A stretch of 64,000 nucleotides of DNA from an uncultured Acidobacteriota bacterium (GCA_963788915.1 CAWBIY010000001.1:16470-80469), one strand, 5' to 3'; counted from the first letter of the stretch, positions 3,193-18,232 are shown. Notes: generated by a model not told the origin, from the sequence alone. Numbers and translations: made by a program.

Positions 3193-3439
3193 GGGGGCTG
3201 CGAAACGTGAATCAGTTTCGGCCGGCAGGAATCCTAGCAGGATGTGGAGCTCCTGCGTACCATGCAATGCTTGAGCAGCTGGTAGCCGCCGGTAGGCCAG
3301 CATCCCGGAAGGCGACTTCAAGCGCGCCACGGGAGACTCACGCGTGCGAGTAGCGTTACTCAAGTGGGTCGATTCCGAGTAGCCCGCCATCCGCCCGCAA
3401 TCGGTAGCAATAACCAATGGAGCTTCCAACTGCACAGAA

Positions 3440-3875
3440 GCGGACTTCTTTCCCTGAAAGAATCCAGCGGGCGTTCCGGGACAGGATTCAAGCACAGCCG
3501 GGTTCGGGGACTGCTGGTGATCAGTGAGATTGCATTGGCGGTGATATTGCTCGCCGGTGCTGCGCTGATGATTCGCACGTTTGCCGGGCTGCGCTCAGTC
3601 AAGTCGGGAATTGATCCTTCCAACGTGCTTACCCTGAGGACCGCGATTTCCGGGAGCCGCTACGGCAGCACCACGCAAGTGGAGAACATGGTGCGGCAGG
3701 CAACGGAACGCATCCAGGCCTTGCCGGGCGTTGGTGTAGCTGCCTGCGCGGTCTCTGTGCCGATGGACCAGGTGGGCATCGACTTGCCATTCAGCATTGA
3801 GGGCCATACGCCGAAGAGCGGCGAAAAATGGGAGGGCGACGAGTATTGGCGGTTTGTTTCGCCTGGATATTACCG
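3440..3875 (+). pseudogene. Internal fragment of a second ADOP-family permease
   Basis: SLKESSGRSGTG...RGLLVISEIALAVILLAGAALMIRTF...LPGV; neither end of the permease is present. Confidence 0.8.
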
Positions 3876-3931
3876 GCACCAAGGCCGCTTGGTCGCCGTG
3901 CGCACCATTCGCCTGCGCCTGTGAGATCCCG

Positions 3932-4615
3932 ATGCCGCACAAATTTGTCTCCCAAAGAACTCTTGTTACCGTGATGCGTGCGCTTCGAGATCATGGAACG
4001 GCCGCTGACGAATTGGAGGAGCCGCCCAATTTCGTCGAACTCCTCTACGCGAATGATTTCCCTGACTGGTTCGTCATCCACGCGAGGAGCGAATATAGTC
4101 TTGATTGGCGCGAGATTTTGCCCGCCGTACGCAACACACGGTTTTTCTTCCCTCACACCTACTTCGGCGGACCCGGGGCAAATATCACGGGGAAACAGTA
4201 TCTCAGCAAAGAGGAAGCAGCCGAGACAGGGGAGTGGCTTTTGCAGCGGCTCGCGGCGTTGGCGTCGACGCTTCCAGAAGGCGAGGAGGTCCAGCGGTCT
4301 CTGGAGCTTGACGGGTTTCAGGTCGATCAGAAAAGTCTTCGACTGATGCAGCTGGATTCGGTCACCAGCCAGAGGGAAGAGGAAGAACGCGTTGTCGCTC
4401 TCGTGAATCAGAGCGGTCTCCCGGATTCCGCCGTGATCTTGAGGCATTTGCGGGATGCGCGTGATCACTTTGTGCAACAGAAGGACCACTCATCGATCGG
4501 AGAAGCGCGGAATTTTGTACAACCGCTTCTTGACCGGTCGGTGCCGCGTGGGGGTTTCTCTCAGCGGGCAATCACCCGGGAATTCCGAATCGCGATGAGG
4601 CACGGATCGCGTTGA
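3932..4615 (+). CDS. Hypothetical protein, probably C-terminally truncated; weakly reminiscent of Abi-associated domains
   Basis: Long ORF with protein-like composition (SLELDGF...HLRDARDHF...EARNF); tail looks non-coding. Confidence 0.45.
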   Translation: MPHKFVSQRTLVTVMRALRDHGTAADELEEPPNFVELLYANDFPDWFVIHARSEYSLDWREILPAVRNTRFFFPHTYFGGPGANITGKQYLSKEEAAETGEWLLQRLAALASTLPEGEEVQRSLELDGFQVDQKSLRLMQLDSVTSQREEEERVVALVNQSGLPDSAVILRHLRDARDHFVQQKDHSSIGEARNFVQPLLDRSVPRGGFSQRAITREFRIAMRHGSR

Positions 4616-4883
4616 TCCTGAGTTTGGAGTTCGGCGTCATGCTTCTCCTGAAATTCTCGAATTGGAAATCGAACGCGTGCAGAAGCTTCAGTTGAAGCTA
4701 TAGGTAAGCGGCGACTGGAACTTATTGGGTGGACGTTCGGGTGGTGCTGGGGGGGCCGGCATGCACGATGCTGCCACAGGCGTATTTCAGAGTTGAGATG
4801 GCCGCGTGAGCTTGTGTGGCCGAGCGAGAATGGCTGGAACCACTCGTGCTATCCTTCCTCCCACGTTCGCTCAAGGGCATGCA

Positions 4884-5078
4884 ATGTTTCGGTCCGACCC
4901 CCTCGACCTTGGACCTCTCCGCGCACACGTCCGCGCGATGAATGATTCCGAACTCCTGCGATTCGGCCTCGCCGCCAGGCATGCGTGTGCACCGGACAAA
5001 AACCAAGGCAGACCACCACTCGTTCTTTTCTCTCAGCAACTTGAAGCCGCCGGAAGGAATGGTGCCGCCGGCGACTGA
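4884..5078 (+). pseudogene. Small helical protein family (LR..M.D.EL.RFG...EAR.EW.RR), copy 1
   Basis: LRAHVRAMNDSELLRFGLAAR; the conserved EARKEWCRRR tail is in another frame (2-nt shift near 5048). Confidence 0.55.
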
Positions 5079-5315
5079 CGGCTCTCTGAACAAATCGGTA
5101 TAACTCGGACAAAGCCAAACCGGCCACGACGACATACACGGTCACAGCAATGATGTTATCCACGAGACCCATCGCGCCCAGGGAGGCTTTGGACTTGCGC
5201 TTAGACCTGGCCCGCATATCCCCACGATACTGAAGCCGGGAATTGATGCTACTGGCCAAAGGGAGCATTTTGGGGCAATGCCGGGCGAGACTTTTCGAGT
5301 CTCAACTCGTGACGT

Positions 5316-5557
5316 TCAGCGTCTAGGTAGCACACTGAAACTGATTGCGACCCGTTGCTTTTTAGCCGGATGTCGCCGGCGCCACTCCGCCCTCGCCTCT
5401 TCAACTTCCACGAGGTATGGCACCGTCGCACAGAAGAAGTTCATCTTGGGGTCCGACAGCTTACGTGCTTGCTGCCCGAAACGGCGTGACTCAGGTCGGA
5501 CATTTGTCGTAAGCGTTCGCGGAGTTCTTCGGGGCTCTCTGGTCTTAGTTGAATCAA
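5316..5557 (-). pseudogene. Same small protein family, copy 2
   Basis: TTG start, IQLRPESPEELRERLRQMSDL, frameshift, then RRFGQQARKL...EEARAEWRRRHP. Confidence 0.6.
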
Positions 5558-5713
5558 GGCTGGCCTCCCTTGTTGTCATATTGGGGAGGAAACGGGACGA
5601 CAGAATAGCACGACCATCTGTGGGATGGGTGGGCGGACTGCGCTCCGTATACCCTTTTTGCCGCCGTCTGGAAAGTGCGTTACGACAAATTGAGTTAGAC
5701 TGATTTTAAGGGC

Positions 5714-6047
5714 ATGACTCTCAAGGATCTTGAAACTCGGATCGATCAGTTGGTTGCTCAGGCTGAGACGGCGTTAAGGAACGCCAGGGTCGGTCATTAT
5801 TCCCAGACCCCGGCCATGCAGCCTCAGGACTGGGCAGCACTCCGCGCAGCGGCGCTTGCGTTCATAGAATCAACCTTCGGGCGCGAGCACAGTTACTGCG
5901 GAGAATTTCACAAGAGAGTGGCCAGCGCCTGGGAGTCTGACGGGAAGGAACAAAGCGGCCCACGGCAAGTATTCCGAGTATACGATCGAACAGGTCGTTC
6001 TGATGCTTGCCGGCGTTCGCGATTTCATTTCTCGGATTCGACCCTGA
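5714..6047 (+). pseudogene. Internally deleted HEPN (DUF4145-like) protein
   Basis: N-terminus ...FIESTFGREHSY..F (5714-5945) joined out of frame to RNKAAHGKYSEYTIEQVVLMLAGVRDFISRIRP* (5946-6047), which carries an Rx4H HEPN motif. Confidence 0.6.
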
Positions 6048-7555
6048 ATTCATCCCTCCGGGCTCTCCTGCTCGCAGGTGTGTGTGTTGCGTTGCTGCTG
6101 ATTGCCTGCGGCAAGAAAGAAGCTACGCCACAAGGTACCGACCAGACCAAGCAACAAAGAGATGCCTCCGGTCCGACACGGTCCACTGCGACGAATGCTC
6201 TGTTGTTACCGCTTCACTTCGAGCACCACACCGCCGATCTCGACGAAATGGTGAAGAGGCGCAACATCCGTGCGCTTGTCATTCTTAATCCCATCGGCTT
6301 CTTTTATGACAAGGGACGGCCCCGAGGCGCCATCTATGAATCGCTGGAAGAGTTCCAGAGGTTTGCCAACAAGAAGCTTAAGACTGGACCCGTGCAGCTG
6401 AAAGTCACATACCTGCCGGTCGCACCGCCTCAAGCGGAAGCCGCCCTCAGCGAAGGAATGGGGGACTTCGTCGCGAACGCCATTGCTGTCACTCCTGAGC
6501 GTGAGAAGCGGTTTGCCTTTTCCGTCCCTATTCAGACCAATGTGACCTGGATCGTAGTGAGCGGACCCGGGTTCGGCTCGTTTTCCACCCTCGACGAACT
6601 TGCAGGGAAGGAAATCTATGTCAATCCGCTCACGCTCGCCTACCAGGAACTGCGGAAGTTGAACGACGCGCTGCAGAAAGCAGGCAAGACGCCTATACAC
6701 GTTCGGGAAGCTGACAAGAATCTTACCGACGACGATCTGGTCCAGATGGTCAACGCCGGCCTGATCCCCGCCACCATCACCACGCGGGAGCGCGCCGAAC
6801 TGTGGTCAAAGGTCTTCGATAATTTGAGGGCGTATCCCGACGTACCGCTCGTCACTGAGGGACAAACCGCGATGGTTATGCGCAAGAACAATCCCCAGCT
6901 CAAACAGCTTCTGGATGAATTCGTCGCCGGCCATGGAGTTGGTACGTCTTTTGGAAACACGCTTTTGCGTCGCTACCTGAAGAATACCAAGTGGGTGAAA
7001 AATTCCACCTCCGGCAAAGAGATGGAAAAGTTTCGTGCCACCATCGCGCTGTTTCAGAAATATGCCGCGCAATACGATTTTGATTACCTGATGCTGGCCG
7101 CACAAGGCTACCAGGAATCCATGCTGAACCAGAACCTGCGCAGCCGGCGGGGTGCGGTGGGCATCATGCAGGTCATGCCCAAATACGCCGCAGCCCCACC
7201 TATTAACATCGCCAACGTGGGCAGAACCGACGCCAACATTCACGCAGGGGTTAAGATGTTGCGCAACATCGCCGACACCTATTTCAGCGACCCCAAGCTG
7301 AATCCTGTCGACCGCACGATGTTCGTCTTTGCCAGCTACAATGCTGGCCCGACCCGCGTCGCCCGCCTGCGCAAGCAGGCCGCAGAACGCGGACTCAATC
7401 CTGATGTCTGGTTCGAAAACGTTGAACTGATAGCCGCCCAGGACATCGGGCAGGAAACCGTCACCTACGTCCGAAACATTTACAAATACTACGTAGCCTA
7501 CAAGCTGGCCGTCGAACAGACAGGGCTACGGCAGAAGACGGCGAAAGGCAAATGA
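6044..7555 (+). CDS. mltF: MltF-like membrane-bound lytic transglycosylase (substrate-binding domain + SLT domain), lipoprotein
   Basis: Lipobox LLIAC; SLT motifs YQESMLNQ, GAVGIMQVMP, ASYNAGP, ETVTYV; true start uncertain (possibly CTG 6044). Confidence 0.8.
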   Translation: MNSSLRALLLAGVCVALLLIACGKKEATPQGTDQTKQQRDASGPTRSTATNALLLPLHFEHHTADLDEMVKRRNIRALVILNPIGFFYDKGRPRGAIYESLEEFQRFANKKLKTGPVQLKVTYLPVAPPQAEAALSEGMGDFVANAIAVTPEREKRFAFSVPIQTNVTWIVVSGPGFGSFSTLDELAGKEIYVNPLTLAYQELRKLNDALQKAGKTPIHVREADKNLTDDDLVQMVNAGLIPATITTRERAELWSKVFDNLRAYPDVPLVTEGQTAMVMRKNNPQLKQLLDEFVAGHGVGTSFGNTLLRRYLKNTKWVKNSTSGKEMEKFRATIALFQKYAAQYDFDYLMLAAQGYQESMLNQNLRSRRGAVGIMQVMPKYAAAPPINIANVGRTDANIHAGVKMLRNIADTYFSDPKLNPVDRTMFVFASYNAGPTRVARLRKQAAERGLNPDVWFENVELIAAQDIGQETVTYVRNIYKYYVAYKLAVEQTGLRQKTAKGK

Positions 7556-7895
7556 CGCCCGGGTTCCTCGGCCCGCGCGGCGCGGATCGTTGGGCATGCG
7601 TAAACCGCAAGGGATCCGTCCCACATCAATTTCGATACTTGTTGTAACAAGGCGTTACACAAGTGATCGGGATTACTTGCTGGTTGGGGTGTTCATAGTG
7701 GTCACCGGAGTTTTGATTATCTTGGTTCTCCGGGAGGAGCGACGACGCCCTTTGAATCTGGCGGACCGGACAAAACACTCTCAGTCGCTCGGATTACTGT
7801 TGTTAACGGGCGATAGCGCTCACGACCCGGACTGGTTTCGGATTCTGGGCGGATGGCGGGCAACCCGGAGAGCGCCGGGATAAACCGGCATGTTG

Positions 7896-9897
7896 GTGTG
7901 TCCAAGGAAGGCTGGCGTATTCAGTGAGGAAGAGTCTCACCAGGGCAAAAGCCAGAGCCCTGTAGCTTGGATAGCAAGGAGGAAGGAAACTGAATCCTGA
8001 AAGCCTATCGACAAAGCCATCTCTCGGATGGTGAGCGAGTCATCGGGCCGTAACGAAAGTGAACGCAGAAATGGCCTCGAAACGGGAGCCCCAGAGGCCG
8101 AGCCTTCCTTCATGAGGCGAAGGCAACATGGATCGTCGCAGACTGACTGAAGCGGCGAGACACTCTGGCGGGGTTATAGCGACAGCACGATGACAAGGAT
8201 GCGCAAAGCAACTGGAGAAACCCTCCTCGTCCCGCTGAGAAATTGGTGGAGAAAAGGAAACCGTATAACCGGAGACACCGGGAAGTCGGTGGAACGACGA
8301 GAGGGTGGCGGAGGGGTCTGTAGTAGCTGCGAAGCGGGGTAATGCCCGTGGAGCGAAGAGACCCTGCTGTTTGCAACGACTCCAACAAAAAGGAAGGCAA
8401 GGGTGAGATGACAAAGGCACCCATCTGTTTGCAAGACCTGAGGAGGAGTCTATACGTCAAGGCGAAGGCTGAACCAACTTGGCGTTTCTGGGGACTGTAC
8501 GTTCATGTCTGCAAGATGGAAACGCTACACGAAGCCTACCAGGCGGCAAAGAAGAACAATGGAGCACCGGGAATTGACGGTGTCACGTTCGATGCCCATC
8601 AAAGAGGGTGGAGTGGAAAGTTTTCTTCGGCAGATTAAAGACGAATTAGTCTCAAACACGTATCGGCCCATGGGGTTACGAAAGAAGGAGATACCGAAGG
8701 ACGGCGGCAAAGTCCGCATTCTTTCGATTCCGTCAATTCGTGACCGTGTGGTCCAGGGAGCTCTTAAGCTCATTCTGGAACCGATCTTCGAAGCTGACTT
8801 TCAATCGGGATCGTATGGATATCGACCCAAACGAACTGCACATGAAGCGGTGAACCGCGTGGCACACGCAATCGTCGAGGAGAAGACTCGAATCATCGAC
8901 ATCGATCTCCGCGCCTACTTTGACAATGTTCAGCACTCGCTGCTGTTGGAGAAGGTAGCGCAAAGGATAAAGGATGGAGAGGTGATGCATCTTCTCAAGA
9001 TGATTGTGAAAGCGACGGGGAAGAAGGGAGTTCCGCAAGGTGGGGTGATATCGCCTTTGCTCAGCAACCTCTACCTCAACGAGGTGGATCGGATGCTAGA
9101 GAAGGCGACCGCTACCACGCGACGCGGAAAATACACCCACGTTCAATACGCACGTTTTGCGGATGACCTGGTGATATTGCTGGACTCCCATCCGCGGCAT
9201 GGATGGCTCGTGAAAGCGGTAGAAAAACGATTGCGAGAGGAGCTGGCCAAACTCAACGTGACGATCAATGAAGAGAAGAGTCGGACGGTGAATTTATCGA
9301 AGGGAGAAAGCTTCAGTTTCCTGGGCTTCGAATATCGTCTCATCTTAAGTCGCAATCAGATGTGGCGACCGCAGTACACGCCCAGGTTGAAGAAGCGTAA
9401 GGCGCTATTCGTAAAGCTCCGAGAGATCTTCCGACGATTCATGAGCCAACCCATGGAGCGAGTGATCGAGTTGATCAACCCGATGTTGCGGGGATGGGTG
9501 AACTACTTTGCAGTGGGGCACTCAAGCCGGTGCTTCGCGTTCGTCAAAGACTGGGTAGAGAAGAAGATTCGACGGCACCTGATGCGATCCCGGAAACGCC
9601 CAGGGTTCGGCTGGAAAAGGTGGAGTAAGACGTGGTTCTACGAGGGGCTGGGACTTTATAACGGTTACCGGCTTCACCGACTAGTACCACTGCCGAAAGC
9701 CTCTCCTGCTGGAGCGGTCTCATAACCCTTGACTAGAAGCGAGCAGGTAAGCCCATTGCTGGAAATCGGCACGATGGGTTTGATGAGGCGGGGGCTGGAA
9801 ACGAGCTTACGGTTCAGCTAGTGAGGCACTCCCAGAGGAAACGGGGAGCAACTGATAGGCTGCACCTTCGGAGTATCGCGCCAGTCCTCGACCCAAC
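7896..9897 (+). mobile_element. Inner group II intron 1, inserted in domain I of the outer intron
   Basis: Starts GTGTG, RT/maturase ORF, DV AAGCCCATTGCTGGAAATCGGCACGATGGGTTT (about 9749-9782), ends CCCAAC; removal restores the hairpin TG|TAGGG...CCCTACA. Confidence 0.88.
8408..9725 (+). pseudogene. ltrA: Group II intron reverse transcriptase/maturase (no En domain), +1 frameshift near 8597
   Basis: MTKAPICLQDLRR...GAPGIDGVTF / IPSIRDRVVQ, PQGGVISPLL, YARFADD, FLGF, LRGWVNYF. Confidence 0.88.
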
Positions 9898-10390
9898 TAG
9901 GGGATGCAAGAGCCCTACAGGAAAGGAAGTAGCGAATCCATCCTGACCTCGAGTCTTGCTGGGGACATCGCGAGGTGTCTCTTGAAGCGTAGACAGAGGC
10001 ATCGGTGGGCGGGGCGATTGAGCTGCGAAAAGCCCGTAGATCAGGATGCCGACTTCATTCCGAGTGAGAGGAAGGCAACACGGCAGCCACGCTAAACGCG
10101 AGTGGACTGTCGGTCCTGCGTAGTCTAAGAACCCGCGCACGCTGAGAAACAACATGCACGAGAACCGGGAGATCTCCAGCACGCCTTGGTCTGACGATCA
10201 AGGCCGGTCCGCGAAGGCCACAAGCCCCAATGCGGACAGGCACGTGCCGGAGAAGTCGGACGGTGTCGTTGTACCTGTGAACCAGCCGAACCAGGGAGGG
10301 AAACCTTCCGCGGAGGTTGGGGAGGGAAGGGCACAGACGAGGGAGAACATCGTTCAATCGCACAGGCACCCGACACAGAGCGGGAAGCGC

Positions 10391-11015
10391 ATGTCCCAGG
10401 GGTTGGACGGTGTGCGGAAGGCAGCAAAGGAGAGAAAGCAGGAGCGGTTCACCGCTTTGCTCCACCATCTCAATGTTGATCTACTCCGCGACAGCTTCTA
10501 CGCGCTTCAGCGTAAGGCTTCGCCCGGAGTAGACGGCGTAACGTGGCAGGAGTATGAAACCGGGCTGGAGGATCGACTCGTCGAAGCAGCGGGGAGAGGG
10601 AAAGCCAGAGACCTTCACGTTCCTGGGCTTCACCCACTTCTGTGGGCAGCGCCACACGAGCGGAACCTTCACCGTATGGCGGATTACTGCGAAAAAGCGA
10701 ATGGTTTCGAAGCTTAAAGCCATTAAGGTTGAGCTTCAACGCCGGATGCATGATCGCAACGCCGATGTTGGTGCTTGGCTCTGGAAAGTGGTGCTGGGAT
10801 ATTACCAATACCACGCTGTTCCTGGGAACACGACTCAGTTGCGCATCTTCAAACTTCGCGTGTGCAGGCTGTGGCAGAGTGTTCTGGTCCGCCGTAGTCA
10901 ACGCGCAAAGATGTGTTGGGAACGTTTTACCCCAGTCCTGAACCGGTGGATTCCTCCACCCCGAGTTCTGCACCCCTATCCTGACGCACGCTTTTACGCC
11001 ACTCATCCTTCGTAA
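10391..11015 (+). pseudogene. IEP of the outer intron with the RT core deleted
   Basis: N-terminus (RFTALLHH...ASPGVDGVTW...EDRLV) joined out of frame at about 10583 to the RT7/X region (ETFTFLGFTH...GYYQYHAVPGN...HPYP); no PQG or YADD motif. Confidence 0.85.
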
Positions 11016-11057
11016 GAGCCGTATGCGTGGACGCGCCAGTACGGATCTGTGCGGGGG

Positions 11058-11699
11058 TTGTGTCAAGACGACGCGAAAGCGTCATGCTGTACGAAAGATG
11101 AAGGTAGGCCCTTCGAAGTCGCCCTGTAGGGGGAGGCTTCAAACTGCCATAAGCTGCTTCGGTCAAAAGCCGTGGTGGTGAACGTTATGGTTAAAAGGCA
11201 TGACAGTCCGATCATGTCAAGTAGGAATAAGAGAGATGAGTGCAAACGAACCTCTGATGAAGCATCGAAAGGATCTACGACGACACCAAAACCGGAGTTT
11301 CCCCCGTGCTCTGGGAGCAGCATGGCAGATGCCTACGTACTGGCCATGCGGTGTCCGGTGTTCAGGAGGCATGACTCTTATTCGGGCTTTCGTACGGAAC
11401 TTGAGAACCTGTTCGGTGATGCTAAGGGAAAAGGCACAAGCGGAGGCCCCGCGAGGCTGAATGTACTGATGCGCCGACCAGGCTCGGACTGCTCCATAGT
11501 AGTGACGAAACGGAGTAATGTCCGTGGAGCGAAGGGAGCAGGTCACCCACGCTGGGATCGAGTCAACTGGAAACAGGAGGAACTCACTGTCCTGGCGGAA
11601 GGCGGTAGCTTTCACTGGGTGGCACGAGCCGTGTGACTGGAGACGGTCAAGCACGGATCTGTGAGGGCCTCGGGGTGAAATTCCCCGGGGCTACTCGGC
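11058..11699 (+). mobile_element. Inner group II intron 2, ORF-less (642 nt), inserted at the DV-DVI junction of the outer intron
   Basis: Starts TTGTG; DV GAGCCGTGTGACTGGAGACGGTCAAGCACGGATC at about 11626-11659; DVI CTCGGGGTGAAATTCCCCGGGGCTACTCGGC; flanks rejoin to a canonical DVI. Confidence 0.85.
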
Positions 11700-11740
11700 G
11701 CGATCAGCGATGGTCGTCCCTACCGCGACAGTAATTCTCA

Positions 11741-11770
11741 AGTCCTGGCAAATGTGCTTACCGGACAGGT
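11741..11770 (+). repeat. Dyad site, copy 1 (AGTCCTGGCAA-ATGTGC-TTACCGGACAGGT)
   Basis: Member of a dispersed repeat family; 11 nt downstream of the outer intron 3' end. Confidence 0.7.
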
Positions 11771-11893
11771 GACTTTAGCGACCCAAGCGGCGAGCCCGAC
11801 TAAGTTGGTCGTTCAGGCCCACACTTGCAGCGTCTCCACCAAACTGTTTGCTTGCCGGAGCGTGCAGGAGAACGGCGAGAGGGAGTACAGCGG

Positions 11894-12136
11894 TTAGCCG
11901 AATGCGATCATCAGAGCCTCGCGGCACGATTCGCTGGCCTGCTCATCGCTCACGTGCGTATAGATCATTGTGTTGGAAATGTTTTTGTGGCCCGCTCGTT
12001 TGGAGTATCCCGGTACAACGTACGTGTAGCTGGCTCCTGCGTCTTGGCGGTCAATTATTGTTACATCCATTTGGTTCGCGGATTTTCCCAAGCCGGCCAG
12101 AGCAAACAAGGTGAGAATCGCAGGAACGATCCTCAA
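11894..12136 (-). pseudogene. Chimera: secreted-protein N-terminus fused to a tyrosine-recombinase C-terminal tail
   Basis: Signal peptide + VTIIDRQD...YTYVVPGYS, then GHKNISNTMIYTHVSD (recombinase H...Y motif). Confidence 0.55.
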
Positions 12137-12279
12137 TACAGATTTGAGCGTTGGGCACCTCTCTGAAAATGATAGACCGAGCCCATTGAAACTAACGATA
12201 AGCGGATCATTAAGTGTCGTAAGAGGAAGCGGCTAAACCTTCCGTACCATTGCCGGCCGCTAACGCCGCGCATAGCTAA

Positions 12280-12630
12280 ATGATGCGCCTCGCGCTCATC
12301 TTGGCCTGTCTAGCGACGATAGCCGGAAGACTCGCCTATGCTGGCTACCGTGAACGCACGCCGAATCTCAAACCGGCTCGGGCTGCTTTTCAAGCCATAA
12401 ACACTCAGTATTTCGACGGTCAGTTGCCTACGCCGGTATTCCGCTATGCAGACTTGCCAGATGCGTTAGCGACAACGATTCAGGGAAGCGACGGACGTTT
12501 TCTAATTGAGCTTCGACCGGGCGTTGACCTGAGCGTGTTACGGCATGAGGCTTGTCACATCTTCACTTGGGACGAAGACGCGGACCACGGCCCTCAATGG
12601 GCTGCCTGTATGGAGCGATTCGCAAAATAG
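12280..12630 (+). CDS. Small secreted SprT-like zinc metalloprotein
   Basis: Signal peptide; IN..YFDGQLP; LRHEACH (HExxH); HGPQW. Confidence 0.7.
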   Translation: MMRLALILACLATIAGRLAYAGYRERTPNLKPARAAFQAINTQYFDGQLPTPVFRYADLPDALATTIQGSDGRFLIELRPGVDLSVLRHEACHIFTWDEDADHGPQWAACMERFAK

Positions 12631-12771
12631 GATGAGCGATTACCTGGATGACACTCCTTAGGAAAAGGAAGTCAGTGCCCGATTGGTCGCATTACCAGGA
12701 CAGATGCCGTATTAGGTCAGGTTGATTGGTTGGGGGCGTGTCGGTGTTTCGAGAACCGGCGCGTCCCGCTT

Positions 12772-13089
12772 TTACCCAAGAAGCTTACGTAACTTGCGTA
12801 CCGACTCTTCTGAAAACACACCCTGTGTCTCGTGGCCTTCGCTATCGCTCAATGTGTAGAAGATGGGAAAACTAATCTCGTTTAACGGTACATCGGGCGA
12901 GATTTGCCTGGGTTTCACCTTCCCGGCAGTGTCAAAGACAAACTCCATATCGATAAGAATTTGATCATTGATTTCCGTAATGAGGATGTGCAGGGGCGGC
13001 TTCAGGGTGCCATCTTCCACGGCAGCGTCGGTTTTTACCGCTATAGCAGTGAGAATCGTCTCCCAGCCTTCCGATTGTAATCTCGCCAT
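12772..13089 (-). CDS. Hypothetical protein
   Basis: 105-aa ORF with ATG and an upstream GGAGG. Confidence 0.5.
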   Translation of the reverse strand: MARLQSEGWETILTAIAVKTDAAVEDGTLKPPLHILITEINDQILIDMEFVFDTAGKVKPRQISPDVPLNEISFPIFYTLSDSEGHETQGVFSEESVRKLRKLLG

Positions 13090-13289
13090 CTGCTCACCTC
13101 CGGCACGTCCCGCTTACTGCTTACAACTGAAAGGGGCCCGGAGAAGATTTCTCAGACGCAATTCAAGGAAATTTATACTGAAACGATGGCAGAGTTCGTC
13201 CATTGATCGTAGGTTCGATCTTGACCGCGAGCGGTTGAAACCGTTGCTGTGGCTAAATCTCAGCGATGGGCCGCACGACGGATTCGAGA

Positions 13290-13796
13290 TTAGTGCTGTC
13301 GCTGCACCAATGGGATCTGCGATGCCAGTTGCAGGTCGATCAAGCTGCTTATGCGACGGTCGATCTGAAAGAAGGTGGCGGTCTTGGTCCCCGGCAGCAC
13401 GGTGCTGATGATCGGAACGTACTTGATGCGGAGCTGCGCAATAGACTCGTCCAAGGCCAATGAGCGATCGATTAAGCTCCTTGCCTGACCATCCGTCAAT
13501 GAACCGTAGTTCTGAGCGTACTCCTTGATCAAGGCGTACTTCTGATCGCCGACTTTCGTCATTTCCGCAGCGTACTGGTCATAAACCGGCCAGAATTTTG
13601 TCGCCTCCGCGTCTGTCAGGATTAAATTCGCCGCAACCAGCTGTTTTTTCCCCGACCGGAGATCCTGTCGCAATAGCTGGATATCCTGGTCGGTGACGGT
13701 TGGGGAATCCTTGCTGGCCGACGACTGGGCGTGCGCAGCTGGGACCACCAATACCCACGTGCTCGCCAAAACGACTGCAACGATTTTATTTCTCAT
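13290..13796 (-). CDS. Secreted helical protein (LT..EA.KFWP.Y..Y family); paralog of 53331-53879
   Basis: Signal peptide; LTDAEATKFWPVYDQY...LIDLQLASQIPL. Confidence 0.75.
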   Translation of the reverse strand: MRNKIVAVVLASTWVLVVPAAHAQSSASKDSPTVTDQDIQLLRQDLRSGKKQLVAANLILTDAEATKFWPVYDQYAAEMTKVGDQKYALIKEYAQNYGSLTDGQARSLIDRSLALDESIAQLRIKYVPIISTVLPGTKTATFFQIDRRISSLIDLQLASQIPLVQRQH

Positions 13797-14075
13797 ACCG
13801 GTCCTCCTCGAAACTAATCGAATGGACTCCCTCCTCTGAACATGTTGACTTTACGAATCTGAGGCTGCCACCAGGGGCCAGGTCGCCCAACTGTCAATAG
13901 TTACAGGCCATGGCGCTCGGTCAACAACGATGGAGACTGAAAGCCCGGCTCAGACATGAGCCAAATTGGCAGCGGTTTGGATGCCCACCGCCCTCGTTTG
14001 GCCGAGAAGGCTGTCAAAAGTGACAGTATTCGCAGCAGAGTCCTCTCCCCGAGCATCACTGCAGTGGGGGCATCC

Positions 14076-14720
14076 ATGCCACTACCGCGAGTCATACTCG
14101 CCGATGATCACACGATTCTTCTCGAGGCACTTCACAAGCTCTTAGAGCCCCATTGCGAAATTGTGGGCACTGTAGCGGATGGCCGCACTTTGCTGAAAAC
14201 CGCGCTGGAGCTTAAACCCGATGTGATCGTCGCGGACATCAGCATGCCGCTGATGAACGGTCTGGAAGCCGGGGCGCGATTGAAGGAAGCGCTGCCCAGA
14301 ATGAAGCTCATCTACTTGACAACGAAGGAGGACCCGGACTTAGCTGTGGAAGCCTTGCGCTGCGGGGCGTCCGGCCATCTATTGAAGACTTCCGCCGTCA
14401 AGGAATTGATTCGGGCCATCCAATTGGCACTCAAGGGAAAATCGTACGTTACACCGCAGATGGCGAGGAGAATGCAGAAGCCATTCAATAAGAATCCTAA
14501 CAACGGACCGAAAGCGCGCGCCAAGATCCTGACCGCTCGGCAACGGGAGGTCATGCAACTGTTGGCCAGGGGAAAATTCATGAGGGAAGTGGCCGGCGTC
14601 TTGAATGTGACTAAGCGGACTGTGGCATATCACAAGTATCACATCATGGAAGTACTGAATCTCAAGACGAATGCCGACTTCATTCGATTCGCCATCGAAT
14701 CACGGATTCTCAAACCCTGA
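14076..14720 (+). CDS. NarL/FixJ-family response regulator (REC + LuxR HTH)
   Basis: VILADDH, PDVIVADISMPLMNG, LTARQREVMQLLA, TV.YHKYHIM..L. Confidence 0.93.
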   Translation: MPLPRVILADDHTILLEALHKLLEPHCEIVGTVADGRTLLKTALELKPDVIVADISMPLMNGLEAGARLKEALPRMKLIYLTTKEDPDLAVEALRCGASGHLLKTSAVKELIRAIQLALKGKSYVTPQMARRMQKPFNKNPNNGPKARAKILTARQREVMQLLARGKFMREVAGVLNVTKRTVAYHKYHIMEVLNLKTNADFIRFAIESRILKP

Positions 14721-14926
14721 GATCTGCGCGCCCTGGTGGCCCAGACCACCGCGTACCAACTGACGGACACAGGACCGAGAGGTGTTACCAAGCCAAGACG
14801 GACGGTCGAGGTGAACCCCTTCGATGGAACCCCTACCCGACATGCAGAGTAATTCTCGAAATGCGGCGGCATCCACCAGAGCTTTCGTTTCGAAGAAAGG
14901 GCGAATTGTTTTGGAACTCCCGGGTA

Positions 14927-14959
14927 GGTCCTGGTAAACGCAGCGGTTACCGGACAAGT
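14927..14959 (+). repeat. Dyad site, copy 2 (GGTCCTGGTAAACGCAGCGGTTACCGGACAAGT)
   Basis: Same arms as copies 1 and 5, with a longer spacer. Confidence 0.7.
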
Positions 14960-15236
14960 CTGCCCGCACGAAGAATCAACAAGTTACACAGAACGTCACG
15001 AACCGATACCGAATGCTACAAGTGCAACGCCGACTTGCGCTTAACCGCGGGACACGAACGGCTGGTAGCACTCAGTAGGGCTCGGTGGTGGGCACAAGTT
15101 GAGGCGGAGTTGTTTCAAGCAAGAAGTCCCGCTCTGGCAATCTTGACAGTTTCCGCCAAGTTCATTCCCTGATTTAATTTGGTTCCCTCCGTGAAGAGGT
15201 TCTGAGATTTAGATCGAATGTTTCCGGGCCCGCGTT

Positions 15237-15968
15237 ATGGAAGTCACCAAATTCAGATCACGACTGTTTGTTGCACTGGAGCAGATGACGGTACATCTTC
15301 GTCAGCATACGCTCACCGTATTGGGAAGAAGTGTCGCCAGGAGTCGAAGACTCGAGGAAGCACTTCGCGGCAGCAAGAGCCCTTTGCGAAAGTTAGTAGC
15401 AATATCTCGCGATGCAATCGTTGCGACGAACGCCAAAATCGCCAGAGAACTGTTTATCGGGTTGGGACAGGTAGCGATACATCTTCTGCAAGCACAGAAC
15501 ATAGTCATGAGATTGGGAAGAAGTGTCGCTAGCAAACCCCGAAGACTACAGGAGGCACTCCGTGCAAGGGAGAATGATTTACAGACGTTACTCGTAAGCT
15601 CTCCCGATGCAATCGTCGTGACAAACTGTGACCGCCGTTTTGTTGCCGCAAATCCGAAGGGCCTCGATTTATTTGGCGTCTCAGAAACCAATATGAGGAA
15701 GTTCACCTTTGAGACCTTTCTTTGCCGCGGTCAAATTTCAGAATTCAAGGGACATGGTTCGCCTTTCAGAAGACGAAAGGTGAAGTATGGGAGATGCGAG
15801 ATTCGGCGTTTGGACGGAAGCCTGCGAGTCGCAGAGTGCCGTTTTTTCGCAAACTTTGTCCCTTTTCGACATCTATACAAGTTCCGTAACGTTATGGCAA
15901 CAAATCAATACCAGCCTGCCACACTGAGAACACCAGCTAGCACATGCCCAAAAACAAGGGGGTCTTAA
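15237..15968 (+). CDS. Orphan PAS-domain protein with a tandemly duplicated N-terminal segment
   Basis: Two copies of LF..L.Q...HL.Q...LGRSVA...RRL.EALR; PAS motif SSPDAIVV...FVAANPKGLDLFG. Confidence 0.65.
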   Translation: MEVTKFRSRLFVALEQMTVHLRQHTLTVLGRSVARSRRLEEALRGSKSPLRKLVAISRDAIVATNAKIARELFIGLGQVAIHLLQAQNIVMRLGRSVASKPRRLQEALRARENDLQTLLVSSPDAIVVTNCDRRFVAANPKGLDLFGVSETNMRKFTFETFLCRGQISEFKGHGSPFRRRKVKYGRCEIRRLDGSLRVAECRFFANFVPFRHLYKFRNVMATNQYQPATLRTPASTCPKTRGS

Positions 15969-16149
15969 TGGGTCGACGCAACACTCAGCTCGAACCCACC
16001 TTGCATTGAAAACAAAAGCTAAAATCGCTCGCTAGATTAGACCAGCCGGAAGGCTACCCTGGCCACAGACCGAGAGCCCCAAAGATTTGGTACCCACGTC
16101 GTAGAACTAGCAAGTAACGGGTCTCTCGCGCAAAAGTTGACCGGCGGCG

Positions 16150-16770
16150 TCAGGAAGATAGAGTTTTGAGCCATCCCACGAATCGCGCCCGATCTTCCTG
16201 CTCCATGGCTACGAACTTCACGCCCATGCCTTGTTTGGGACTACTTCTTTGGACAGCAGCACGAGCGCGAACTTCCCCTGTCGGCGCATCGAGCAGCAAC
16301 TGAATGAAGGTTCCCATTGCCGGCGGGCTTGGGGTAAGGATGAACAGTCCGCCCAACCCAAAGTTGTCTACCGCGGAGACCAGTCTCGTGTTGGAACTAT
16401 GCCAAGCGACGATCGTCCCTTTCGGGGCCGGAAGCCGAGGATAAACACGACGTTCACTGTCCTCGGCTAACATACCGGCAAAAGGGATGCGCTCCGACCC
16501 TCGGTGGCCAATAAGTAGCGCCAAGTCGGCAGCCATCGGAGCGGCACATTCGAAGCCAGAATAGGCTTCGATCAGGACCTTGGCGATCCGGGCGGCCCCT
16601 GGAGAAAAAAAGAAAAGTTGAGGTGAAACAACAACGCTAGTCGTGAAAATGGCTGCATCTGCGGGGATGCCGTTTGCCATAAACAGGTCTTCGAAGGCTT
16701 CCTGCAGCGAGAAACGCTTACCGGCGAGAACGTCCTCACCGGAGAGAGTCACTTTGTACCAGGACGCCAT
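16150..16770 (-). CDS. PilZ-domain protein with an N-terminal domain of unknown function
   Basis: ERRVYPR and DNFGLGGLFI (RxxxR and DxSxxG-like), GMGVKF. Confidence 0.75.
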   Translation of the reverse strand: MASWYKVTLSGEDVLAGKRFSLQEAFEDLFMANGIPADAAIFTTSVVVSPQLFFFSPGAARIAKVLIEAYSGFECAAPMAADLALLIGHRGSERIPFAGMLAEDSERRVYPRLPAPKGTIVAWHSSNTRLVSAVDNFGLGGLFILTPSPPAMGTFIQLLLDAPTGEVRARAAVQRSSPKQGMGVKFVAMEQEDRARFVGWLKTLSS

Positions 16771-17104
16771 AGCGACATTCCTCTTGAGCTATGACCGTAT
16801 CGGGTGTCGTGTTTCAGCGATCCATTTCTCTAAAACCAACTGATCCTTCTCTTCGATCTTGGTAAAGGCGACTCCCTTGCCGCCTCTTGCGTGAACATTA
16901 GGGCACTCGCTAGTCCGCTTGCGCTAGCGCGCTAGAGGCGCGCACGCACCGGATGTGCAGCAAATCTCTGCGCTGGAAGGGAGGAGTTGGGGAACATTTG
17001 GGTGTGTTCCCCGACTCCGGCGAGCTGTGCAAGGTCGGAGGTCGCACCGAACGCTCACCTGCGAACGCATGCTTAGCTGTTTAGACTTGGCCCCGTTCCT
17101 AAGC

Positions 17105-17124
17105 AACTAGGGGAATCCCTAGTT
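17105..17124. promoter_or_regulatory. Palindromic motif AACTAGGG-GAAT-CCCTAGTT (variants at 18585-18604 and 20344-20363)
   Basis: Perfect 8-bp arms; three intergenic copies within 3.3 kb. Confidence 0.5.
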
Positions 17125-17161
17125 TGCGCGCACGTCGTCCTATAGTTTCGACCCGTGATTG

Positions 17162-18058
17162 TTAGTCCCCGGCTAGCCCTTTGTTCAGCAGGACCTTGAC
17201 CTCAACGCGGCGGTTTTCTGCGCGTCCGGCCGCGGTCTCGTTCGAGGCTACTGGTGCCGCTTCACCCATGGCGCCTGGCGCCACAATGTGGCGGACCGGT
17301 ACGTTACAGTTCTGAAGCAAGAAGGCGATTACGTTCTGTGCGCGCTCCATGCTCAGATTCTGGTTCATTGCCGCGTTGCCGCTGGAATCCGCGAAACCCT
17401 TCACCTGAATGATGTACCCCTTGAGGTTGACGGCATTCTGGGCTAATTTCTTCAGCGCCTCTTGATCCGCTGCGGAGATGTCGCTGCTGGCGCTGGCAAA
17501 TTGGACAACCAGTTGAGCCTTGGTGTCGTAATCGCTCAATTCCGAGAAACGCTTGCTGGCTTCCGCGGCTTCCGCGGCGTTAGCGTCAATGGCCGCCTTG
17601 TTGGAAGCGATATTTTGCTTGTTCGCGTCGATGTTCCGCTCGTTTTCTTCAATATTCCGCTGATTGGCGGCTACTTTCTGTTCGGTGGGACTTAGACCTG
17701 CCTGGATCATCTCGGCCGTTTCTAAGTCGTCTCCATCGAAGGTAATGGATTTGGCAAGGACGTGCGTGGCGTCCTGGCTTGTGCCGTCAACCGAAACCTT
17801 AAGGCCGGGAATCAGCACAGCGGCAGACATTTGCTTTTTGCGAATGCCAAGCCCCTTCGGTTGCTGCACCTTGGTGTCGTCATCGAGAGTAACGGTCATC
17901 GTGCTTCCGTCGGTAGTCTTGAGGACAATCGTGTCGCCGGTACGAGCGGTGATCAGCCCCTTAGCCTTTGTCTTTTCGCCCTGTGCATAAGCCGAGAGCA
18001 GCGCCACAAAGCATACTGCCAGCAGGCCTACTACGATTCTCATTCGCTTGTTACGCAT
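17162..18058 (-). CDS. OmpA-family protein with an N-terminal OB-like domain
   Basis: Signal peptide; V.GFADSSG...NQNLSMERAQNV; ENRRVEV. Confidence 0.88.
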   Translation of the reverse strand: MRNKRMRIVVGLLAVCFVALLSAYAQGEKTKAKGLITARTGDTIVLKTTDGSTMTVTLDDDTKVQQPKGLGIRKKQMSAAVLIPGLKVSVDGTSQDATHVLAKSITFDGDDLETAEMIQAGLSPTEQKVAANQRNIEENERNIDANKQNIASNKAAIDANAAEAAEASKRFSELSDYDTKAQLVVQFASASSDISAADQEALKKLAQNAVNLKGYIIQVKGFADSSGNAAMNQNLSMERAQNVIAFLLQNCNVPVRHIVAPGAMGEAAPVASNETAAGRAENRRVEVKVLLNKGLAGD

Positions 18059-18232
18059 AGTGTTGTTTCTCCTTTCGGTCCTTGAACCATTCCCAAACGC
18101 GTCATCTACCCGTGCCCTCGACCTATATACTCAGACTAATCCGGGGTTAGGCCGCCATTTCGGCTCCCCCCGTCTGTGTCCTAAACGGCTCCTCCCTTTC
18201 GGAACCAGGGCCTGAGAAGTGTTTATGTCCGC

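Follow-up and report, generated by a model that had tools for sequence, protein, structure and literature searches.

Positions 7870–11729 of a 64,000-nucleotide stretch of DNA from an uncultured Acidobacteriota bacterium (GCA_963788915.1 CAWBIY010000001.1:16470-80469), the whole of which is henceforth referred to as the window, are occupied by three group II introns. The outer intron is designated B, and the two inner introns, A and C, lie side by side inside it, so that the nest is two levels deep. The composite was very probably built by successive site-specific retrohoming and persists as a non-autonomous copy. Its three components are as follows.

7870–11729, plus strand: outer group II intron B, 3,860 nt in total, of which 1,216 nt are its own (7870–7895, 9898–11057 and 11700–11729)
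7896–9897, plus strand: inner intron A, 2,002 nt, GUGUG...CCCAAC, in a hairpin of B domain I
11058–11699, plus strand: inner intron C, 642 nt, without an open reading frame (ORF), UUGUGUC...CUACUCGGC, in the 5' strand of B domain VI

Anatomy and boundaries of the nest

Each intron matched a different Rfam model of domains I to IV on the plus strand: D1D4-4 for A (7922–8058, 106.6 bits), D1D4-6 for B (9909–10133, 159.9 bits) and D1D4-2 for C (11100–11222, 104.9 bits). Domains V and VI (DV and DVI) were matched in C at 11624–11699 (RF00029, 48.1 bits), and those of B gave a weak, sub-threshold and interrupted Rfam match of 31 bits at 11014–11077.

Empty and insertion-bearing forms of both inner sites were found as DNA in Logan contigs of four soil metagenomes, with both forms present within the same runs. 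In the empty forms, 7895 is joined to 9898 (2002 nt skipped, GT..AC) and 11057 is joined to 11700 (642 nt skipped, TT..GC). The same sites are uninterrupted in more than 50 Acidobacteriota copies of B, which read ...CATGTTG/TAGGGGATGCAAGAGCCCTACA... at the A site (RNA form CAUGUUG/UAGGGGAUGCAAGAGCCCUACA) and ...GTGCGGGGG/GCGATCAGCGATGGTCGTCCCTACCGCGAC at the C site (RNA form GUGCGGGGG/GCGAUCAGCGAUGGUCGUCCCUACCGCGAC), slashes marking the junctions. Both inner-intron boundaries are proven by these contigs and copies: A and C lie wholly within B, and exact removal of each restores the B sequence. The 5' end of B is at 7870 (GAGCG), the point from which 53 aligned copies with 53 different upstream flanks are alike. 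Its 3' end is at 11729 (...CCCUACCGCGAC/), beyond which the downstream flanks of about 40 copies diverge and at which loose ends also occur in metagenome contigs.

An initial annotation of this locus, made from the sequence alone, had recognised three group II introns with two of them inside the third, and the Rfam types, the DV/DVI matches and the empty sites bear this out. Both sequences that it expected to be restored by intron removal are real. Its term “triple-nested” was right as to the number of introns but not as to depth, and the start of the outer intron, placed at 7877, had to be moved 7 nt upstream. The 2002-nt intron does interrupt the TGTAGGG...CCCTACA hairpin, but this is the second stem-loop of domain I, after GCCGG-GAUAAA-CCGGC, and not the first. 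Within the 7-bp stem, A is inserted between nucleotides 2 and 3 of the 5' strand, at the foot of the hairpin. The 642-nt intron, described as sitting at the DV–DVI junction, is located 8 nt into DVI. There it parts two G residues halfway along the 5' strand, three base pairs above the branch-point bulge.

The nest was also recovered in a second assembly. A 34-kb contig from an independent ENA assembly (L161) agrees with window positions 3290–18068 (14.8 kb) apart from 7 differences, comprising five substitutions and two single-base indels, and it carries the same three introns and the same extra C (+1 C) in the reading frame of A. Every junction is spanned by metagenome contigs (flank/B, 7663–7886; B/A, 7866–8066; B/C, 10639–11078; C/B/flank, 11678–11914; the last two with 0 differences). 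In another metagenome-assembled genome (MAG; locus L005), an intron A with 94% identity occupies the identical B site. Because a second assembly holds the same nest and the same +1 C, the misassembly that the initial annotation had named as a possible refutation can be set aside.

Ribozymes, exon pairings and intron-encoded proteins

To collect relatives of B, one genome per species was scanned with the C-terminal portion of the outer intron-encoded protein (IEP), and 80 loci were obtained. Relatives of A came from a metagenome scan with the read-through A IEP, which yielded 80 more. The parts of B and its target are listed below; exon-binding and intron-binding sites are abbreviated EBS and IBS, and reverse transcriptase RT.

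7856–7869, plus strand: 5' exon target of B, with IBS2 GCGGGC at 7856–7861 and IBS1 CCGGA at 7865–7869 (covariation, 52 copies)
7873–7889, plus strand: first stem-loop of B, GCCGG-GAUAAA-CCGGC (fold; 98.9% of cells paired in 19 distinct copies, near-invariant)
7889–7895, plus strand: second hairpin of B, UG/UAGGG...CCCUACA, its 5' strand overlapping IBS1 of A (7-bp stem; 98.5% paired with wobble-only changes in 19 distinct copies)
9909–10133, plus strand: B domain I core (Rfam D1D4-6, 159.9 bits), holding EBS2 and EBS1
10154–11015, plus strand: B IEP remnant, with the N-terminal part to about 10584, a 702-nt deletion with frame change, then RT7 and thumb/X
11016–11047, plus strand: B DV (fold; 31 bits here versus 42–44 bits with RF00029 in uninterrupted copies)
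11050–11057, plus strand: 5' strand of B DVI (fold of the rejoined sequence), in which CGGGGG at 11052–11057 is IBS1 for C
11700–11729, plus strand: rest of B DVI, with bulged branch A 11722 and 3' end ...GAC (fold; identical to the family consensus)

Over the 52 B copies, the columns of EBS1 (UCCGAG, 10059–10064) covary with flank positions -1 to -3 and EBS2 (GCCCGU, 10032–10037) covaries with positions -9 to -13, pairing being kept in the variants CCACC/GGUG, UCUUC/GAAGA and CCGAC/GUCG. The flank in the window fits, with UCCG pairing to CGGA and GCCCGU to GCGGGC, and this match to its own EBS1 and EBS2 indicates that B arrived by ordinary retrohoming. When C was removed in silico, B folded as a canonical DV and DVI with the bulged A 11722 seventh from the 3' end; the rejoined DV–DVI is identical to copies that lie above the RF00029 gathering score (42–44 bits). 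The 5' terminus GAGCG matches four of five positions of the GUGYG consensus. Among 53 B-family 5' ends at 53 distinct insertion sites, 39 read GAGCG, 12 GUGCG and 2 GGGCG; since GAGCG is found at many distinct sites, an A at intron position 2 is compatible with mobility in the B family. B is of a type without an En domain and with IIB-like EBS1 and EBS2.

Compared by tblastn with the intact 530-aa ORF of locus L019, the B IEP retains residues 1–158 and 388–530, in different frames, and lacks residues 156–387 (702 nt). The loss of its RT core had been correctly called. Metagenome contigs carry an intact continuation of the B IEP after 10584. A 153-aa ORF with its own ATG (10554–11015) covers only the RT7 and thumb/X part.

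The insertion site of B is intergenic, downstream of an MltF-like gene. No second B homing site was found in the window and no inverted repeats were found in the B flanks; no ORF was conserved across the exon junction in 8 loci. B targets share a semi-conserved element of about 60 nt beyond the IBS, ..GGCGGATGACGGGCAAACCGGA/AGTTATC..GTCGGATTAGTACCGAC.., with a small hairpin downstream, as judged by comparing window positions 7840–7869 and 11730–11800 with the flanks of L001, L004, L014, L015, L019, L026 and L074. Because no ORF is conserved across the junction, it could represent non-coding DNA that is repeated in these genomes. A 97-aa ORF (7590–7883) without a Pfam match runs into B, and its stop coincides with the B insertion point. 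With B removed it ends two codons past the junction (..GGWRATRK*), and it is probably not a gene.

The exon pairings of intron A were mapped in 59 A-family copies with resolved 5' ends.

7889–7895, plus strand: IBS1 for A, CAUGUUG (A-family EBS1–IBS1 covariation)
About 8083, plus strand: short EBS2 of A, covarying with flank positions -9 and -10 (59 copies)
8108–8114, plus strand: EBS1 of A, CUUCAUG, in a hairpin loop (mutual information with flank positions -1 to -7, 59 copies)
8176, plus strand: EBS3 of A (A), covarying with flank position +1 (59 copies)
8408–9725, plus strand: A IEP, 438 aa if read through, frame broken after codon 63
9748–9782, plus strand: A DV (fold; compensatory changes at 8 of 13 pairs in 17 family members)
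9785–9897, plus strand: A DVI, about 110 nt with an extended arm (consensus structure with covariation; bulged branch A 9891)

The A EBS1 pairs at seven of seven positions with the targets CAUGAAG (L082) and CAUGGAG (L083 and L085). CAACAUG at 8124–8130, complementary to the 5' exon at all seven positions, was considered as EBS1 and rejected, as covariation over the 59 copies points to 8108–8114; the strand that holds CAACAUG (consensus GCAGCAUGG) is conserved irrespective of the target. This A-family strand spans 8118–8136 (consensus GAAGGCAGCAUGGA); its window version, CAACAUG, could pair with CAUGUUG of B but shows no covariation with targets. The termini of A agree with group II criteria (GUGUG at the 5' end, AAC at the 3' end), A 9891 is a single unpaired A seventh from the 3' end, and DV and DVI together contain 21 pairs with compensatory changes in the 17 relatives.

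The frame of the A IEP is broken by an extra C in GAT GCC C ATC (8595–8597), which splits the first 63 codons from the remaining 375. The downstream ORF at 8505–9725 keeps complete RVT_1 and GIIM domains, with RT1–7 and X, in one frame of 388–406 aa; Pfam domains were found in none of the other ORFs. The +1 C, which had been marked for checking, is also present in L161 and in contigs X1 and X2. Copies of A without it were found in four RNA runs, and the A IEP of L005 is uninterrupted and 91% identical to the window protein. The inner IEP had therefore been rightly described as frameshifted, but only its first 63 codons are out of frame. No RT other than the A and B IEPs was found in the 64-kb window, and none of the three introns of the nest holds a full-length IEP. 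The statement that there is “no intact maturase” is strictly correct, but it hides the fact that the defect of A is a single base; B keeps its thumb/X ORF.

Intron C contains neither an ORF nor an IEP, as had been annotated.

11301–11306, plus strand: putative C EBS1, CCCCCG, in the loop of the hairpin CCGGAG...CUCUGG (complementary to CGGGGG 11052–11057 at six of six positions)
11626–11699, plus strand: C DV (11626–11659) and DVI (11663–11699) (RF00029, 48.1 bits; fold; bulged A 11693)

The putative EBS1 sits in a loop homologous to that of C-like relatives, and its pairing with IBS1 stops exactly at the DNA boundary. It was assigned by complementarity, the relatives available being 67–70% identical; the EBS/IBS mapping that had been proposed for this locus thus draws on covariation in the case of B and A and on complementarity in that of C. 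IEP-bearing relatives of C start with GUGCG and end with CUCGAC, and the C segment begins two nucleotides (UU) upstream of the GUGUC that aligns with the GUGYG of the relatives. The extra UU could be untemplated nucleotides from the original insertion, as an alternative to a shifted splice site. Non-canonical boundaries had been noted in the initial annotation and were found for both C (UUGUG...GGC) and B (GAGCG). Copies of C with no more than one difference are found in a B variant whose DVI differs by five indels and that has another downstream flank (X1 and X2), and again beside a third flank (X3), giving at least three B contexts overall. On its DV/DVI, its D1D4-2 match, its EBS1 and its evident mobility, C can be classed as a group II intron despite its termini.

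The three introns had been thought to come from different lineages, and the three D1–D4 types and the 28–29% identity of the A and B IEPs agree with this. The view is qualified by a DIII-like motif of 53 nt (11485–11537) that C shares with the A family at about 85% identity. As far as Rfam, folds and covariation reach, three complete predicted sets of domains I to VI are present, so that the second refutation named in the initial annotation, a failure to find such sets, did not materialise. PDB sequence matches, consulted for assignment of A, B and C to named classes (A–F, CL, ML, g1–g6), identified group II RTs only. In one soil metatranscriptome (X37), the contig depth over the D1D4-2 core at 11108–11200 reaches about 2,600, compared with about 20–100 for the rest of C; this peak represents abundant RNAs carrying the D1D4-2 domain I motif from many related introns.

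Nesting among related introns

The 80 B loci are all from Acidobacteriota, mostly MAGs of Terriglobales, Acidoferrales and Bryobacterales, together with Edaphobacter modestus and Tunturiibacter gelidiferens. The canonical uninterrupted B is 1,918 nt long, and the ribozyme parts of B in the window are 91–95% identical to full-length copies. Another element lies inside B in at least 15 of the 80 loci. In the G-run of B DVI, a diverged B-like D1D4-6 intron of about 1.95 kb was found in L010 (3752–5691) and in L029, L059 and L061 (about 5458–7410). An 831-nt ORF-less intron lies directly after B DV in L034 (5467–6297) and in L003, and further insertions occur at B positions 123, 288, 402, 600 and about 1000. 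Three lineages (the B-like intron of about 1.95 kb, the 831-nt intron and C) thus insert within 8 nt of each other. At L003 (25–3612) the nest is three levels deep: within B lies the 831-nt ORF-less intron, and this in turn is interrupted immediately behind its DV by an A-like intron of 2,003 nt. In L034 the 831-nt intron has the corresponding site empty (GTACGGAA/TGATAGG).

Within the A family, 9 of the 59 copies are located in the B-type hairpin and at least 10 of the 59 directly after the DV of another intron. IEP-bearing C-like introns, 67–68% identical to C at the nucleotide level, lie exactly within the YADD codons of B-type RT genes in L030 (375–2262) and L031 (2960–4856); the site reads GAT GAC A/GUGCG...CUCGAC/TT GTG, and removal restores the RT frame. 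A-type and C-type introns home repeatedly into B-type introns. Judged from about 160 related copies, nesting is routine in this lineage of Acidobacteriota.

Three further observations concern these families. L055 carries, on the minus strand at about 9237–9680, an ORF-less relative of C of about 440 nt with D1D4-2 and DV/DVI matches and large internal deletions. Among the A-family copies L116, L123, L084 (3' flank) and L142, some sit in the GGGCCGUAA motif of another A-type domain I, and one, L142, follows immediately on the 3' end of a further A-type intron; the A family thus invades itself too.

A broader interpretation, to which we would give slightly less than an even chance, is that Acidobacteriota harbour a community of group II introns parasitising group II introns. 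Its lineages would be specialised on conserved ribozyme helices, namely the second domain I hairpin, the DV–DVI junction and the 5' branch-helix strand, the last of which at least three lineages enter within 8 nt of one another. In this community, an ORF-less intron whose 5' end is shifted or non-canonical (UU+GUGUC) and whose 3' end is GGC would still be actively homing with an IEP supplied in trans.

Origin, splicing and mobility of the composite

In the history proposed here, a B-type intron would first have inserted into a matching intergenic target downstream of the MltF-like gene. An A-type intron, from a sublineage of the A family that would use the conserved B hairpin motif as its homing site, would then have entered the 5' strand of the second domain I hairpin. 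The ORF-less C-type intron would have followed into the 5' strand of B DVI, with its EBS1 recognising CGGGGG, and the loss of 702 nt from the B RT and the +1 frameshift in A would have come later. Since no full-length IEP remains, the copy is non-autonomous, and splicing, if any, would depend on IEPs made by further copies in the same cell. Among relatives, intact IEPs are known for A (L005) and for B (L019).

The order of splicing, if it occurs, may be constrained by the positions of the insertions. IBS1 of C is the same strand that forms the branch helix of B, so that exon binding by C and the B branch helix exclude each other and C would be expected to leave first. Its departure would free and rebuild the branch-point helix of B; A would probably leave before domain I becomes native, and only then would B be excised. 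On this structural model, the proposal in the initial annotation that B can fold only after both inner introns have spliced is well motivated for C. For A it is weak, as most of the second B hairpin can still form with A in place.

Several points weigh against this reading. The joints 7895 to 9898 and 11057 to 11700 seen in RNA runs would be explained equally by empty-site copies of B, and the flanks of the locus itself are at zero depth in these runs, which accordingly provide no direct evidence of splicing. RNA contigs contain both joined and unjoined forms, and the joined forms also exist as DNA. The A EBS1 pairs at only five of seven positions with CAUGUUG of the window, with U·U at -2 and -3. 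The termini of C (UUGUGUC...CUCGGC) depart from the GUGYG/AY criterion, and the DV loop and 2-nt bulge of B deviate from the 28-copy consensus. One or more of the three introns may be inactive at this locus. The search for IEPs covered the 64-kb window.

The strongest alternative, which we consider possible but on balance doubtful, is that the nest arose by homing and is now a dead relic, decaying intergenic DNA in which none of the three ribozymes splices. The mismatches of A beside its splice site, the termini of C and the DV changes of B all fit this account, as do the deleted RT core and broken frame of the B IEP, the frameshifted A IEP and an intergenic position, which implies no selection for splicing. 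However, an all but identical C (one difference at most) is present in a diverged B variant and next to other flanks, as expected of a recently mobile element with exactly these termini. In addition, EBS1 and EBS2 of B still match the exons, the B ribozyme parts retain their 91–95% identity to full-length copies, and the A ribozyme shares 94% identity with its counterpart in L005, which retains an intact IEP.

Successive insertion can also be questioned from another side, as B may fold, splice and reverse-splice while still carrying an inner intron, in which case a composite (B with A, or B with C) would move as one unit and splicing of the inner intron first would not be required. B with A is present at two genomic sites with different flanks, in the window and in L005, and the composite may therefore have moved as one unit. 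Divergence between the two copies is similar for A (94% identity) and B (94–95%), A lies at the foot of a hairpin whose remainder can form, and it is recognised that a composite twintron may be retromobile (PMC2882425). Nevertheless, we regard this account as unlikely. A-type introns are also found in this hairpin in B-like hosts that share just 70–76% identity with this B, and one A-family EBS1 pairs fully with both CAUGAAG and CAUGGAG (with G·U at -3 in the latter), which fits independent homing. C is near-identical across B copies with five DVI indels, the pattern that Mohr et al. read as recent independent insertion (PMC2882425), and its IBS1 competes with the B branch helix. Wrong chaining of repeated intron fragments during metagenome assembly is extremely improbable: all three families are multicopy in soil metagenomes, and contig depth is 30–300 over the introns compared with about 5 over the flanks, which would invite chimeric assembly, but L161 recovers the entire nest within a 14.8-kb match that has 7 differences, all four junction types are spanned by metagenome contigs, and the same A site is occupied in L005.

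A nest built by successive retrohoming is of a kind already known, and it belongs with the nested introns of Methanosarcina and the Thermosynechococcus twintrons. Twintrons have been described in Euglena chloroplasts and several bacteria. In Methanosarcina acetivorans, as summarised in PMC4424553, up to five introns are nested through repeated homing into other introns without coding exons (Dai & Zimmerly 2003). As far as that account goes, the likeness extends to nesting by repeated site-specific homing into group II introns, to a mixture of ORF-less and RT-encoding introns, and to flanking exons without host coding sequence, the host intron acting as a lasting homing site. The host here is a bacterium of the Acidobacteriota rather than an archaeon, and the depth is two here and three in the relative L003; in the archaeal case, as summarised, up to five introns are nested. 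The nested-intron sites of M. acetivorans reportedly lie in intron ORFs, whereas the homing sites in the present nest are ribozyme helices (the domain I hairpin and the 5' strand of DVI).

In Thermosynechococcus elongatus, ORF-less TeI3 introns are found inside TeI4 (PMC2882425). The ORF-less C resembles TeI3, which is mobilised in trans, and in both systems inner copies are identical and outer copies diverged, and insertion into another mobile intron serves as a route of proliferation. Identical inner and diverged outer introns were read there as recent independent insertion by Mohr et al. (PMC2882425). Unlike the introns described here, TeI3 sits in domain IV of TeI4 between two start codons and leaves the catalytic core untouched. 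The inner and outer introns of Thermosynechococcus are close relatives (PMC2882425), whereas the present nest combines three Rfam D1–D4 types, with A and B IEPs about 28–30% identical. Sequential splicing in vivo is known for the Trichodesmium twintron (PMC4649490). As in that case and in Euglena chloroplasts, the inner introns here interrupt functional domains of the outer one, and inner-first splicing would be expected (PMC4424553, PMC4649490). Those twintrons interrupt genes that are essential or conserved, and selection for splicing maintains them (PMC4424553, PMC4649490), whereas the present nest is intergenic and its IEPs are degenerate. Altered intron termini are also known, as in C.te.I1, in which the 5' splice site is shifted upstream of GUGYG (PMC4024640; PMC4424553). 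C likewise starts upstream of its GUGYG-equivalent (GUGUC); unlike in C.te.I1 (PMC4024640), the predicted start is displaced by 2 nt and the 3' end reads GGC in place of GAC, as judged from the DNA sequence.

In the literature library searched, no paper combined Acidobacteria, group II intron and twintron. What is added here is comparative, in that conserved ribozyme helices serve as the homing sites and nesting is routine in this lineage. The locus and its approximately 160 relatives extend nesting from one archaeon and a few cyanobacteria to soil Acidobacteriota, and leave the current view of group II intron biology unchanged. They offer natural tests of the disruption that domains I and VI tolerate and of mobility with non-canonical termini. 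Nested introns show how selfish ribozymes find safe landing sites, the host intron being a harmless, multicopy and self-renewing target.

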